Under the pieces are notes generated by a model that had not been told where the DNA came from, did not search any database, and saw only the letters and a list, made by a program, of their open reading frames with translations. A DNA stretch of 64,000 nucleotides from Myxococcota bacterium (GTDB lineage: Bacteria; Myxococcota_A; UBA9160; JAFDDA01): NCBI GenBank assembly GCA_965228475.1, contig OZ245817.1, positions 288,001-352,000 on the forward strand, in the 5' to 3' direction. The position numbers and the translations under genes are program-made. Of the stretch, positions 27,865-35,773 are shown one piece after another. How positions within the stretch are numbered: the stretch's first letter is position 1; every line of letters starts with the position of its first letter.

Positions 27865-27989
27865 CCTTCCGTCTCCCCGATCGCGCCCCGGAGCTTACGG
27901 AAGGGTTCGGGCGACGGTGTGGCCTTTCGGTGGAATCCGGCACCTCGGGCCCGCTACTCGCCGGGCGGGAACCTGTGCCATGGTGGGGC

Positions 27990-30491
27990 ATGGCCGCCGG
28001 CGAACGCACAGCGACCCCCGAGACCTACCCCTTCGCCGAGATCGAACCCCTCTGGGAGGAGCGGTGGGAGGCCGCGGATCTCTTCCGCGCCGGCGCGCAC
28101 CCGGATCGGCCGAGCTGGTACGGCTACGAGTACCCGCCCTACCCGAACGGCAGCCTGCACATCGGGCACGCTCGCAACTACACCCTCGGCGACGTCTGCG
28201 CGCGGTTCCACCGCATGCGCGGCTTCGACGTGCTCTACACCCAGGGCTTCGACTCCTTCGGGCTGCCGAACGAGATCGCCGCGCGCGAGGAAGGATGCCA
28301 CCCGCGCGAGGTCACCGAGCGCTCGATCGCCACGATCTCGGACCAGTTCCGCCGGCTCGGCCTCTCCTACGACCGCAGCCACTTCATCGCCTACCACGAC
28401 CCGCACTACTACGTGCAGACCCAGCGGATCTTCCTGGCCCTCCTGGATGCCGATCTCGCCTACCGCGCGCGGGCGGCGGCCAACTGGTGCCCGACGTGCA
28501 GTACGACCCTCGCCGACGACCAGGCCCTCGAGGGGAACTGCTGGCGCTGCGGCCGGCCCGTCGAGACGCGGGTGCTCGACCAATGGTTCCTGCGGACGAC
28601 GCGCTACGCCCAGGCACTGCTCGACGGCCTCGACACCGTCCGCGACTGGCCCGACCACGCCCTCGCCCGCCAGCGTGCGTGGATCGGCCGCACGCCCGGC
28701 GTCGACGTGCGCCTCGAGATCGCCGAGCGCCCCGGCCGGGAGCTCGTCGCCTTCACGACCCAGCCCGAGCTGATCTACGCGATGAACTTTCTCACGCTCG
28801 CGCTCGAGCACCCCTTCCTGCTCGAGCTCGAGGCGGATGGGGCCCTCGCGCAGGGCGTTCTCGACGAGGTCGAGGACATGCGGCGGCAGCTCCGCTTCCG
28901 GGCCCGGAGCGCCCTGCGCGGTGCGCCGCGTCCGCCGACGCGCACGGTGGCCCTCGGTCTCCACGTCGTGCATCCGCTGACGGGCGAGCGCCTGCCGCTC
29001 CTCGCCGGAAACTACGTCGAGATCTCCTTCGCCACGGGCGCGGTGCTCGGCGCGCCCGCCCACGATCACAAGGACGGCGAGGTCGCGCGCCAGGCCGGGA
29101 TCGGCGAACGGGTGACCTTGCGTCCGCCGGACGGCGAAACGACCGGGGATCTCATCGCCTACGAAGAAGACTGGCGGCTCGTCGACGCCGGGGAGCTCAC
29201 GGGCGCGACCGTCGCCGAATCGAGGAGCCGCGTCGCCGAGGCCCTCGCCCGCGTCGACGGAGGCGGCGCGGCGGTGCGCTTCCGTCTGCGCGACTGGCTG
29301 GTTTCGCGCCAGCGCTTCTGGGGCGTTCCGATTCCCATCGTGCACTGCGTGGATTGCGGTGCGGTGCCCGTGCCCGACGGGGAACTTCCCATCGAGCTGC
29401 CCGACGAAGTCGACCTCGAGGTGGCGGGGAACCCGCTCGAAGCCTGTACGGCCTTCGTCGAGGCGCCCTGCCCTCGCTGCGCGGAGCCCGCCCGGCGCGA
29501 GACCGACACCATGGACACCTTCGTCAACACGACCTGGTTCCCCTGGCGCCACTGCATCCCCGCCGACCGCCCCTTCGATCTGCACTGTGCCGAGGTCGAG
29601 GAGCGCATGCCCGCGGACGTGACGATCGGCGGCGTCGACGTGCTCGAAGGTGCCTTCTTCCACGAACGCTTCCTCGCTCAAGCGATGCACGAGCTCGGCT
29701 GGATCGACTACACCGAGCCCGTCCGGCGCGCGCTCACCCACGAGATGGTGATCCGCAACGGTCGGAAGATGAGCAAATCCCTCGGGAATACCGTCGACCT
29801 CGACGACGTGATCGAGCGCTTCGGCGCCGACAGCCTGCGCACCGCGATCGTGTTCATGGCCCCCTGGCAGCGTCGGGTGGACTGGCAGGAGTCGAAGCTC
29901 GTCGATTGCCACCGCTTCCTCGCCGCGGTCTTCGATCTGGCGGAGCGTTTCGCTTCGTCCCTCGAGACGCACCGCGAGCCGCGCGAACGCACGGACGTGC
30001 TGGGCGCGATCCATCGCGAGACCGCGGCGATCACCGAATCCTTCGAGGGCTACCGCATGCACGTCGCCGTCCACGGGCTCATGCGCCTGCGGCGCACCGT
30101 CGAGCGCGCGGCGGAGGAGGGAGCGCGGCCGGATGCCGTGGAAGGCCTGTCCCGGCTGGTGCGCATGCTCTCGCCGCTCGCCCCGCACCTTGCCGAGGAA
30201 CTCTGGCGGCGGCTCGGCGGCGAGGGCTTCGTGAGCGTCGCCGCGTGGCCGGAGGTCGATGCGGCGCTCGCAGCGGAAGAGCGGCGGACCCTCCTCGTCC
30301 AGGTCGACGGCAAGAAGGTGGGTGCGATCGAAGTCTCACCCGATGCGGACGAGGCAGAGCTCGAAGCGCTCGCGCGGCCGATCGCAGAGCCGACACTCCA
30401 GGGTGTCGAGGTGCTGCGCACGATCTACGCCCAGCGCCGGAAGACCGACTGGATCAACTTCGTGACGAAGGCCCGCCGGGGCGGCGATTAG
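27990..30491 (+). CDS. leuS: Leucyl-tRNA synthetase paralog with divergent active site
   Basis: HIGH, KMSKS, DSFGLPNE, RDWLVSRQRFWGVPIP, RETDTMDTF, CP1 editing domain, C-terminal VQVDGK; several Leu-pocket residues substituted. Confidence 0.9.
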   Translation: MAAGERTATPETYPFAEIEPLWEERWEAADLFRAGAHPDRPSWYGYEYPPYPNGSLHIGHARNYTLGDVCARFHRMRGFDVLYTQGFDSFGLPNEIAAREEGCHPREVTERSIATISDQFRRLGLSYDRSHFIAYHDPHYYVQTQRIFLALLDADLAYRARAAANWCPTCSTTLADDQALEGNCWRCGRPVETRVLDQWFLRTTRYAQALLDGLDTVRDWPDHALARQRAWIGRTPGVDVRLEIAERPGRELVAFTTQPELIYAMNFLTLALEHPFLLELEADGALAQGVLDEVEDMRRQLRFRARSALRGAPRPPTRTVALGLHVVHPLTGERLPLLAGNYVEISFATGAVLGAPAHDHKDGEVARQAGIGERVTLRPPDGETTGDLIAYEEDWRLVDAGELTGATVAESRSRVAEALARVDGGGAAVRFRLRDWLVSRQRFWGVPIPIVHCVDCGAVPVPDGELPIELPDEVDLEVAGNPLEACTAFVEAPCPRCAEPARRETDTMDTFVNTTWFPWRHCIPADRPFDLHCAEVEERMPADVTIGGVDVLEGAFFHERFLAQAMHELGWIDYTEPVRRALTHEMVIRNGRKMSKSLGNTVDLDDVIERFGADSLRTAIVFMAPWQRRVDWQESKLVDCHRFLAAVFDLAERFASSLETHREPRERTDVLGAIHRETAAITESFEGYRMHVAVHGLMRLRRTVERAAEEGARPDAVEGLSRLVRMLSPLAPHLAEELWRRLGGEGFVSVAAWPEVDAALAAEERRTLLVQVDGKKVGAIEVSPDADEAELEALARPIAEPTLQGVEVLRTIYAQRRKTDWINFVTKARRGGD

Positions 30492-30502
30492 AGGCCAGGG
30501 GT

Positions 30503-30736
30503 TGGTGCCGAAGACGGGATTCGAACCCGCAGCAACGATCCATTCCGGAGCTTGATCCGAGCGCCGGATTGCAGGCTCTCCCGAGACGCCCTGCACCAGC
30601 GGGATCGACGACGGCCCGGGCTTTCCCGGGAATCTCCCCACGGGGGTAACCAATCCCCGCCTCAAGATTTCGCTCCGTTCAGTACGCCGCACGTGGCCCT
30701 CGACCACGCGTGAAGTTCCTGTTTCACTACTTCGGC
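30503..30736 (-). tRNA. tRNA-Leu(GAG)-like gene, 234 nt, with a 161-nt structured variable region
   Basis: Acceptor GCCGAAG/CUUCGGC + A73 CCA; U8, D arm GUGAA-ACAGGAAC-UUCAC; anticodon stem CGUGG/CCACG with loop UCGAGGG; T arm GCGGG-UUCGAAU-CCCGU; variable-arm base stem GCGGCG/CGUUGC. Confidence 0.85.
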
Positions 30737-30744
30737 CCGTCTCG

Positions 30745-30774
30745 ATCGTACGGCCGGGCTCCCGCGCAGGTCAA
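30745..30774 (-). promoter_or_regulatory. sigma70 promoter of the tRNA-like gene
   Basis: TTGACC (30774-30769), 18-nt spacer, TACGAT (30750-30745); ends 8 nt before the acceptor 5' G. Confidence 0.8.
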
Positions 30775-30819
30775 CCGGAGGGGCTTCCCGGCCTCGGTGC
30801 GGTCCGGTTCGGGCCGGGC

Positions 30820-30862
30820 TTGATTTAGTCGCTTGATCAAGGATATTGTTCGCCCGACTAAA
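30820..30862 (+). promoter_or_regulatory. AT-rich promoter/operator upstream of 30889
   Basis: TTGATT-18-TATTGT overlapped by inverted repeat tttagtcg...cgactaaa and internal palindrome ttgatcaa. Confidence 0.5.
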
Positions 30863-30888
30863 CCCCTCGCGCCCGAGGAGGGCCGCCG

Positions 30889-31350
30889 ATGGCGCCCGAA
30901 TCCCTTCCCTACGCACTCGAAATCTGGGACAACGCCGCCCGCCTGGCGCTCCCCATCTGGCTGAAGGCCTGGCTCGGCTTCCTGGCTCTGAGCTTCCTGG
31001 CCTCGCTGGCCTTTGTCCGCACGGAGCGAACCGCCCGCATCGTCCTCGCGAGCTTCGTGGCGAGCCACCTCGGGCTCGTCGTGCTCGGACTCGCCGGCGT
31101 GACGATCCGCACGGGGCTCGTCTCCCTGGCCCACATCGTCGCCTGGACGCCGGGGCTGATCGCCCTCCTGCGAACGATCCCGAAGACCGAGAGCGGCTCG
31201 CGCTTCGGCCTCTGGTGCCGGACGGTGGCCGCGGTCATCGTCGTCGCCTTCGTCTTCGATCTGCGCGACGCCGGCTCCTATCTCTATCACCACGCGGTCG
31301 GCCATCCGGTGCTCGAGGCCGGCGCGGCGGGCGAAGGGAGCGACGCATGA
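30889..31350 (+). CDS. Hypothetical membrane protein (about 4 TM)
   Basis: RBS gaggag; hydrophobic helices; ATGA-coupled to the next gene. Confidence 0.7.
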   Translation: MAPESLPYALEIWDNAARLALPIWLKAWLGFLALSFLASLAFVRTERTARIVLASFVASHLGLVVLGLAGVTIRTGLVSLAHIVAWTPGLIALLRTIPKTESGSRFGLWCRTVAAVIVVAFVFDLRDAGSYLYHHAVGHPVLEAGAAGEGSDA

Positions 31351-34984: not shown

Positions 34985-35773
34985 ATGCGGATCCGGTCCC
35001 TGCTCGTCGCGCTAGCGCTTCTTTCGTCGATGACGGCGACGAGTGCGAAGGCCATGGTGATGTACGAGATCACCGGCGAGATGTTCGGCCAGTTCATTCC
35101 CGTCTCTTCGGACGCGGCGGCGGATCTGTTCGGCGTGCCGCGCGGCTCCGCCCTCGGCACCGTGGATGCGATCCTCCAGGTCGTCGTCGACCCGGCTTCG
35201 ATCCCCTTCATCGAGACGAACACGAGCATCGGACAGGAGGTCACGTACTTCGACGCGATCCTGGCCGCGCGGGTCGACATCAACGGCGTGGTCTTCGAGA
35301 CCACGCGCATGCCGACGGCCGGGACCCAGCAGAACGAGATCGAGGTGAACAACACGGTCGCGCCCAGTGGTCTCGACGCCGTCAACATCTTCTCGCAGAA
35401 CGGATTGAGCGACCTCTGGACGACGGAGACGGTTCCGTTCAATCAGACCGTCGGCGGTGTCTTCCTCGAGGACGCGATCGTCACCATCGCGAACTTCCAG
35501 GCCCTCTTCACCGGCATCGGGACGGGTTGGCTCGACGGATTCGGCCTGCCGGAGACGACCGCCGACTTCGCCGACATCACGGGGCTCGTGGCGAATCTCC
35601 AGTTCGGAATCGACCTCGGCCCCGGCCTGAGCCAGGGGTTCCTGCAGCTGACGATGACCCAGGGCGAGGTCACCGCGAGCCCCGCGACGGTGCCGGAGCC
35701 GGCCTTCGCCGGGTTCCTGCTCTCGGGCTTGGGCGCGCTGGCCTTCGTGCGGCGGCGAGGCGTCCGGGCCTAG
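34985..35773 (+). CDS. PEP-CTERM sorting-domain protein
   Basis: Signal peptide AKA; VPEPAFAGFLLSGLGALAFVRRR. Confidence 0.88.
   Translation: MRIRSLLVALALLSSMTATSAKAMVMYEITGEMFGQFIPVSSDAAADLFGVPRGSALGTVDAILQVVVDPASIPFIETNTSIGQEVTYFDAILAARVDINGVVFETTRMPTAGTQQNEIEVNNTVAPSGLDAVNIFSQNGLSDLWTTETVPFNQTVGGVFLEDAIVTIANFQALFTGIGTGWLDGFGLPETTADFADITGLVANLQFGIDLGPGLSQGFLQLTMTQGEVTASPATVPEPAFAGFLLSGLGALAFVRRRGVRA

Follow-up and report, generated by a model that had tools for sequence, protein, structure and literature searches.

In a 64,000-nt stretch of the genome of a Myxococcota bacterium, called the window below (G000:C1:288001-352000; the genome, G000, is a single contig of 5.0 Mb with 70.5% G+C), we found a remodelled paralog of leucyl-tRNA synthetase (LeuRS; 27990..30491, + strand) encoded next to a giant tRNA-Leu(GAG)-like RNA, which is 234 nt long including its encoded CCA (30503..30736, − strand). 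Pairing and co-evolution of the paralog with giant RNAs of this kind are well supported. As to what the two do together, our judgement is evenly balanced on whether they form a dedicated pair of a ligase and a carrier RNA for non-ribosomal use, outside ordinary translation, which is the reading that we favor.

The paralog was recognized from its open reading frame (ORF) and translation and from matches to TIGR00396 and Pfam. The frame is open over 27930-30491 (+ strand) and ends with a TAG stop at 30489-30491; a start at the GTG at 27930 gives 853 amino acids (P0001), and a start at the ATG at 27990 gives 833. The database copy of the protein (P0002) has 833 amino acids and is 99% identical. 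The paralog scored 635.3 bits with TIGR00396, the NCBIfam model of bacterial LeuRS, which is above the cut-off of 548.4, and the catalytic, connective peptide 1 (CP1) editing, and anticodon-binding domains found with Pfam amount to the full bacterial LeuRS architecture. The C-terminal domain is likewise retained (VQVDGK). HIGH (77-80) and KMSKS (613-617) are intact in P0001, and the aspartate that binds the alpha-amino group is kept (D108, corresponding to D80 of the Thermus thermophilus enzyme); this residue and the two motifs are invariant in both alignments.

For the analysis of remodelling, the paralog was compared with 117 other LeuRS, one of which (P0015) proved to be a member of the paralog family itself. 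The paralog deviates at 40 columns that are at least 93% conserved, and many of its derived states are common to its relatives. In the numbering of T. thermophilus, the pocket changes are M40Y, F41P, H541V, and H545A (Y68, P69, V571, and A575 of P0001), which replace in the paralog the residues that we take to form the leucine side-chain pocket of housekeeping LeuRS. The columns of M40, H541, and H545 are at least 96% conserved among the 117 other LeuRS, and F41 is not among the listed conserved columns. The editing motif is also altered, from TTRPDT to TTQPEL (R249Q, D251E, and T252L), at an arginine, an aspartate, and a threonine each 97% conserved in the comparison set; the editing aspartate of HDxxD is retained. 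Since HIGH, KMSKS, and the amino-binding aspartate are kept and the pocket is changed, the alignment suggests that the enzyme is remodelled, not degraded, and that it still forms adenylates and charges RNA, with a changed specificity for the side chain.

The RNA gene was delineated from the sequence, the minimum free energy (MFE) fold, and contigs from RNA runs. Its CCA lies at 30505-30503 (− strand), 11 bases from the stop codon of the paralog, and the two genes are convergent. The acceptor stem of 7 bp (GCCGAAG/CUUCGGC) is followed by U8 and by a D arm in the style of tRNA-Leu (GUG-AAACAGGAACUU-CAC, with A14, A15, and G18G19). In the anticodon arm, CGUGG-UCGAGGG-CCACG (30692..30708, − strand), C33 is found at 30702 and the anticodon GAG at 30701-30699. 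A structured variable-region domain of 161 nt (30531..30691, − strand; RNA positions 46-206) lies between the anticodon stem and the T arm, GCGGG-UUCGAAU-CCCGU at 30530-30514, which is preceded by U48 and followed by A73 and CCA. The core of a tRNA-Leu is complete (U8, A14, A15:U48, G18G19, the T loop UUCGAAU, A73, and CCA), and the departures from class II tRNA-Leu are the variable region, 161 nt as against roughly 10-20, and C33 instead of U33. The unconstrained MFE fold of the 234-nt RNA is a cloverleaf plus a branched variable domain (z = -2.55), in which branched hairpins are held by the closing stem GCGGCG/CGUUGC. A putative sigma-70-like promoter of the RNA gene, TTGACC-18-TACGAT (30745..30774, − strand), was found by consensus match; it agrees with the consensus at 9 of 12 positions, where 0.0 such matches were expected from 50 shuffles, and its -10 hexamer ends 9 nt before the 5' end of the RNA.

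A preliminary description of this DNA, made from the letters and their translations, had reported a gene of LeuRS architecture and, 11 bp away, a convergent tRNA-like gene with its own promoter, every element of which is present in the sequence. It had further claimed a 161-nt variable region, C33, A73, and the A15:U48 pair in the RNA, which we could read directly, and a loss of conserved leucine-pocket residues in the enzyme, which was borne out by the alignment with 117 LeuRS and the mapping onto T. thermophilus. The same structural filter run genome-wide gave 21 long matches per 5 Mb, a background rate, among which only the window RNA has a tRNA-type T arm followed by ACCA; another of the matches merely bridges two adjacent tRNA-Ser genes.

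The window paralog is not the only LeuRS of its genome. A canonical leuS for 907 amino acids, 36% identical to the paralog and with the motifs MFPYPSG, TTRPDT, and KMSKS, lies at about 775-778 kb of C1. ARAGORN called a normal tRNA-Leu set in G000, with the anticodons UAA, UAG, CAA (two calls), GAG (87 nt), and CAG. The second, canonical leuS and the normal tRNA-Leu(GAG) for which the preliminary description had proposed to look are thus both there, and the window gene is therefore a paralog and the RNA supernumerary.

The standard tools did not recognize the giant RNA. ARAGORN called no tRNA gene in the window, the giant RNA included, and neither ARAGORN nor Rfam recognized any of the giant RNAs of either type described below, the best Rfam match to the window RNA being tRNA-Sec over the 3' part (E = 4.4). 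We rejected a transfer-messenger RNA (tmRNA), as the RNA has D and anticodon arms and ARAGORN places the real tmRNA at 2.98 Mb. A tRNA-Leu interrupted by a group I intron was also rejected: Rfam gave no such match (E up to 10), and the insert is in the variable region and unspliced. A covariance model made from the five class II tRNA-Leu genes of G000 failed to span the inserts and found halves only, with 19.4 + 12.5 bits for the window RNA and 15.4 + 13.6 bits for the RNA of L036, a related locus introduced below.

The RNA evidence comes from four runs, of which two are metatranscriptomic and two are RNA runs by guess only. From each run came one contig (215, 212, 208, and 168 nt) that lies wholly inside 30505-30722, and all four contigs run through the whole insert with no joint. 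The giant form is thus present unspliced in RNA libraries, and the transcription of the RNA for which the preliminary description had asked is supported by contigs that include the insert. Assembled contigs carry no information on strand, ends, or level, and the contig cover within 29800-31000, which is confined to 30505-30722, says nothing about the flanks. At position 30664 all four contigs have G and the window has A (U->C at RNA position 73), which is probably a difference between strains rather than editing.

These data bear on the possibility that the RNA, though shaped like a tRNA, serves as a regulator, a sensor, or a decoy, or is a tRNA carrying an intron-like insert, with the paralog as its chaperone or splicing cofactor and aminoacyl chemistry of no importance. 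We consider this highly unlikely. The RNA is indeed structured and the editing motif is altered, and a LeuRS can moonlight in splicing, as mitochondrial LeuRS does with group I introns. However, no group I or other Rfam family was matched, the inserts lie outside the anticodon loop, and the contigs from the RNA runs carry the insert unspliced. The encoded CCA (in the window and in 11 type-2 RNAs, see below) as well as HIGH, KMSKS, and the amino-binding aspartate point to chemistry at the 3' end.

In a search of 5.8 billion proteins, the nearest relatives of the paralog besides P0002 were only about 40% identical; P0003-P0006 scored 715-674 bits as against at most 625 for ordinary LeuRS. Among the best 150 matches of a profile search of 1.84 billion representatives, 19 had the rebuilt N-terminal pocket motif and had lost TTRxDT, and 18 of these 19 were without the C-terminal-domain motif. 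At 50% identity the family falls into at least 19 clusters, with members from Myxococcota, Actinomycetota, Alphaproteobacteria, Vulcanimicrobiota, and metagenomes, and it is rare and patchy. The GFD/GWD motif alone did not separate the paralogs from canonical LeuRS. No ortholog of the window paralog was found among 40 same-order relatives of G000 (best identity 41%), in which the window RNA had no match beyond the T arm, and none of the G041 paralog among 80 relatives of G041 (best identity 47%).

The DNA of relatives was obtained by pattern scans, which gave L036-L039 from metagenome-assembled genomes (MAGs) and L062-L065 from metagenome contigs. L036, which encodes P0003, is from an Actinomycetota MAG, L037 from a Vulcanimicrobiota MAG (G042, with L079 on the same contig), L038 from an Alphaproteobacteria MAG, and L039 from a Caulobacteraceae MAG (G044), where the gene is cut by the contig end. 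In the metagenome contigs, a degenerate pattern led to five contigs, one of them with full context, and a search for related loci recovered no relative. L040-L042 (Dermacoccaceae) matched the peptide pattern and were rejected as ordinary LeuRS; L040 is the sole LeuRS found in G045, the one genome checked. A canonical LeuRS is present beside the paralog also in G041, G042, G044, G357, G453, G522, and G399, and in G043 the paralog was the sole LeuRS found. In a quick maximum-likelihood tree, ten paralog rows and P0015 were placed on one side of a branch with a support of 93 in the Shimodaira-Hasegawa-like approximate likelihood-ratio test (SH-aLRT), and the canonical LeuRS of the same genomes fell outside the paralog branch; the row CAN_G044 was a wrongly picked ORF and was disregarded.

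To find the giant tRNA genes near the relatives, we used a purpose-written scan for acceptor and T arms, a relaxed version of which gave mostly noise. A giant tRNA-like gene was found within 6.5 kb of the paralog on all seven contigs with enough flank, as the preliminary description had proposed that homologs be inspected for. The distance is 11 nt in the window, 1.6 kb in L036 (upstream of the paralog), 1.7 kb in L038, 2.5 kb in L062, 5.3 kb in G042, and 5.4-6.2 kb in G357 and G453 (downstream, same strand). In G522 and G399 the paralog and the giant RNA are both present, but on separate contigs. L063, L064, and L065 end before the site at which the RNA is expected. In G044 the type-2 RNA motif was not found, a result of little weight as the paralog there is cut by the contig end. 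The G453 paralog (C1:873295-875465, − strand; L104/L107) matches in pieces, with two in-frame TGA codons, and may be a pseudogene or reflect a frameshift or an assembly error.

The giant RNAs are of two designs, with the insert either in the variable region (type 1; the window and L036) or, at about 110 nt, in the D-loop (type 2; 11 copies). The type-1 RNA of L036 (1025-1315) is tRNA-Leu(GAG)-like, about 290 nt long, and upstream of the paralog in the same orientation, and it has a variable region of about 217 nt, U33, and A73. Its anticodon arm, CGUGA-UUGAGCA-UCACG, differs from that of the window RNA by a compensatory change at 31:39. Further compensatory changes between the two RNAs were found at 5:68 in the acceptor stem and at 10:25 and 11:24 in the D-stem.

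Type-2 RNAs were found at L038:7992-8185, L062:10481-10672, and L079:1498-1688 (5.3 kb downstream of the L037 paralog); these three have a common acceptor stem, GCACCUG/CAGGUGC, and an encoded CCA. Among 401 genomes of the phylum of G042, the exact type-2 5' motif occurs only in G042 and in four others (G522, G453, G357, and G399), and all five also hold the paralog, which in the four is 61-75% identical to that of L037. In the same four genomes, the type-2 RNA is present as two tandem copies 670-800 nt apart (L093-L100), which differ mainly inside the insert and in a compensatory manner. In the 11 type-2 copies, a D-stem GCUU/AAGC encloses the D-loop insert, UUGGG with the anticodon UGG is invariant (11/11), the variable loop has 5 nt, the T arm is standard, and CCA is encoded (11/11); the discriminator varies (U, A, or G), and the anticodon arm resembles that of tRNA-Pro. 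An alignment of the 11 copies had 95.9% of cells paired and 11 pairs that change on both sides; shuffles gave 3.5 +/- 1.4 such pairs, with 0 of 500 reaching 11, and slid controls gave at most 5. MAFFT misaligned the giant RNAs against normal tRNA-Leu genes. The RNA design follows the enzyme: the insert is in the variable region where the paralog has kept the C-terminal domain (window and L036), and in the D-loop where the paralog is without it (L037, L038, and L062). That CAGGGCGUC in the window insert weakly resembles the CCAGGGCAUC loop, which is invariant in type-2 RNAs, is probably due to chance.

On the strength of the linkage and of the remodelled pocket, the proposal in the preliminary description that enzyme and giant tRNA form a dedicated pair is well supported, and so is their co-inheritance. 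Without a functional link between the two genes, one would have in the paralog a LeuRS that is drug-resistant or spare, and in the RNA a tRNA-Leu copy in decay, placed side by side by chance. Extra synthetase copies for self-resistance are known (the MupA and AgnB2 types; NCBIfam lists exceptions of this sort), and the pair was found in only one genome of its genus. Against this, the linkage holds on seven of seven adequate contigs from several phyla, compensatory changes preserve the RNA helices, the RNA is present in RNA libraries, and a resistance copy must keep the leucine pocket, which the paralog did not. This explanation is so improbable that we strongly disfavor it.

Most relatives are in operons of a kind typical for specialized metabolism. 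The gene order in L036 starts with a LuxR regulator and the RNA, continues with a 48-aa repeat peptide (PAIGT x4) and a PapB-like radical SAM/SPASM maturase, and then comes to the paralog. The peptide is encoded at L036:1349-1495 (+ strand) between the RNA and the maturase, behind a strong Shine-Dalgarno sequence, and with its four PAIGT repeats it looks like the precursor of a peptide that is made by the ribosome and modified after translation (a RiPP). L062 has a BTAD regulator, the paralog, a B12-radical SAM protein, a DUF3865/haem-oxygenase-like protein, and the RNA, and L038 has an HMGL-like enzyme, a fusion of a flavin mononucleotide (FMN)-monooxygenase with GNAT, a phosphopantetheinyl transferase, the paralog, an amino-acid adenylation domain, and the RNA. 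In L037/L079 and in G357, the paralog is followed by a methyltransferase, an AurF-like protein, further genes, a class-V pyridoxal phosphate (PLP) enzyme, and the RNA. The PLP enzyme that immediately precedes the RNA gene in the operons of G042 and G357 is of fold type I. In P0015, known as a protein only (from Logan), the paralog is fused at its C terminus to Methyltransf_24, and the same methyltransferase is encoded as a separate gene directly after the paralog in L037, L064, and G357.

A class Ia synthetase homolog inside an operon of biosynthetic enzymes, as in L036, L037, L038, L062, and G357, recalls SbzA of the SB-203208 cluster. According to the accessible part of its description (PMC6331615), SbzA is an IleRS-like class Ia homolog, its HIGH and KMSKS motifs both slightly modified, that works in a specialized-metabolism cluster by way of an aminoacyl-tRNA, transferring isoleucine from Ile-tRNA to a small molecule; unlike the present paralogs, it uses ordinary Ile-tRNA from the housekeeping IleRS, has no private RNA, and belongs to another synthetase family. 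By this precedent, the paralog could be a transferase that moves the aminoacyl group to a metabolite or peptide after the housekeeping LeuRS or another enzyme has loaded the RNA. Such a role would fit with A73 and A15:U48, features of tRNA-Leu identity that type-1 RNAs have retained, and with the remodelling of the paralog in pocket and editing site alike. However, the variable discriminator and tRNA-Pro-like anticodon arm of the type-2 RNAs make charging by the housekeeping LeuRS doubtful, a user of ordinary aminoacyl-tRNA needs no private RNA, and the alpha-amino-binding aspartate and the ATP motifs are all kept. We hold the transferase explanation to be decidedly unlikely.

In the favored reading, of a ligase and its carrier RNA, the paralog would activate leucine or a leucine-like non-standard amino acid and esterify it to the CCA end of its own RNA, which keeps the core relevant to LeuRS (A73 in type 1, A15:U48, G18G19, and the T loop). 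The extra domain of 110-217 nt, which sits where tRNAs tolerate insertions (variable region or D-loop), might mark the RNA as private: the paralog and partner enzymes would grip the RNA by this domain, and the housekeeping LeuRS, EF-Tu, or the ribosome would be kept off by it. Once aminoacylated, the RNA would be an activated donor or carrier, on or from which the enzymes encoded in the operon act. Among the three uses suggested in the preliminary description (non-ribosomal transfer, regulation, or targeted mistranslation), the biosynthetic context of the relatives favors the non-ribosomal one, and as a whole that interpretation is partly supported. We put forward more tentatively, as a possibility of clearly lower likelihood, that there is a class of RNA-carrier biosynthesis in which giant tRNAs (~185-290 nt) are private carriers in several phyla, a rebuilt LeuRS-like ligase loads a non-standard amino acid, and radical SAM enzymes, methyltransferases, oxygenases, and PLP enzymes tailor or transfer the RNA-bound residue.

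Several points weigh against the favored reading: (i) the SH-aLRT of 93 for the family branch is below the 95 mark, and the tree is from a quick search only; (ii) the RNA evidence consists of assembled contigs, and for two of the four runs the RNA origin is a guess; (iii) only two type-1 RNAs are known, and their inserts have no evident similarity; (iv) homologs of the window neighbors are scattered over other contigs of a same-genus genome, in which neither the paralog nor the giant RNA was found, and the window module may therefore be just two genes, without a biosynthetic operon; and (v) the conserved anticodon loop (GAG in 2/2 type-1 RNAs, UUGGG in 11/11 type-2 RNAs) fits decoding or reading of the anticodon. 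A pure carrier has no obvious need of a strictly conserved anticodon loop, and a decoding role therefore stays alive.

Such a role would make enzyme and RNA an orthogonal decoding pair, similar to ProRSx/tRNA-ProX, in which the giant tRNA reads CUC/CUU (type 1) or CCA/CCG (type 2) and inserts an alternative amino acid for deliberate mistranslation or in particular peptides. In its favor, the RNA forms a complete cloverleaf in which the anticodon stem has 5 bp and the loop 7 nt; L036 and all 11 type-2 RNAs have U33, each type conserves its anticodon, and G36 is followed by G37. Both inserts are at naturally variable positions of tRNAs, the window module is alone, without a clear biosynthetic operon, and there is a precedent for a devoted synthetase-tRNA pair (accessible parts of PMC11415595 and PMC9437257). 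Yet the window RNA has C33, no known decoding tRNA comes near to having an extra domain of 110-217 nt on its elbow side, and with a rebuilt pocket a foreign residue would enter the whole proteome at common Leu or Pro codons. Moreover, most relatives are at the ends of operons of tailoring enzymes, and the sole Leu codon of the L036 peptide is CTA, which GAG does not read. On balance we regard decoding as unlikely, though less so than the transferase explanation.

To our knowledge, very few dedicated synthetase/tRNA pairs exist beyond the standard set (PylRS, SepRS, and ProRSx); each of these three changed views of the genetic code or of tRNA metabolism and gave tools for code expansion. If the present pair charges a non-standard amino acid, it would be a ready-made natural orthogonal pair and would mark gene clusters of a hidden class. 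Should tailoring enzymes use the RNA as their carrier, this would represent a new logic of natural-product biosynthesis and the RNA counterpart of carrier-protein and scaffold-peptide chemistry. Here, too, the paralog coexists with a canonical LeuRS and is gene-linked to an anomalous tRNA across genomes, as expected of a devoted pair. ProRSx/tRNA-ProX of Streptomyces, called one of the first devoted pairs in the accessible part of a 2024 review (PMC11415595), shares with it a duplicate beside the canonical enzyme, an adjoining anomalous tRNA, and apparent co-evolution (also PMC9437257, in part). In those same portions, the Streptomyces tRNA is of normal size with a changed anticodon, and proline specificity is kept, whereas the present family has an extra RNA domain of 110-217 nt and a rebuilt pocket and is mostly found in tailoring operons.

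Large RNAs with a chargeable tRNA-like acceptor/T module are known from tmRNA, which AlaRS charges, and from viral tRNA-like structures; unlike the giant RNAs, these have no such cloverleaf with D and anticodon arms and are served by a housekeeping synthetase. In SepRS/SepCysS, in SerRS/SelA on tRNA-Sec, and in GatCAB, the amino acid is altered on a tRNA whose unusual shape guides the enzymes. The special tRNA and the PLP enzyme before the RNA gene in G042 and G357 resemble these tRNA-dependent transformations, the products of which, however, feed translation from tRNAs of less than 100 nt. Among divergent second LeuRS, LeuRS-I (Sulfolobaceae) and LeuRS2 (Halobacteria), the only LeuRS duplicates in the accessible part of a 2022 review of synthetase duplications (PMC9437257), also have impaired or altered function and a suspected non-translational role; they are archaeal, with no partner RNA described in that part, whereas the present family is bacterial-type and linked to giant tRNAs. 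As far as their accessible text goes, a 2026 preprint on bacterial tRNA mimics deals with other RNAs and PMC13149037 with free-standing deacylases. We found no description of a LeuRS paralog with a giant tRNA in the searched literature, which omits most subscription journals, and its absence is unproven.

The neighbors of the pair in the window encode a GNAT protein, an alpha/beta-hydrolase, a 153-aa protein, a TauD-like protein, and a thioesterase; an Atlas search with the 153-aa protein gave no lead. The canonical LeuRS of G000 (C1 ~775285-778008; locus L002 583-3306, − strand) has an insertion of about 70 amino acids right before KMSKS, without counterpart in the other nine aligned LeuRS. 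ARAGORN also made odd calls in G000, namely three 'tRNA-???' with four-base anticodons, over-long tRNA-Gly, tRNA-Arg, and tRNA-Ala (88-97 nt), and a tRNA-SeC; some of these may be false positives and others unusual tRNAs. Finally, the window gene at 34985-35773 (+ strand) encodes a protein that bears a PEP-CTERM sorting motif, and an exosortase system in the organism is therefore implied.

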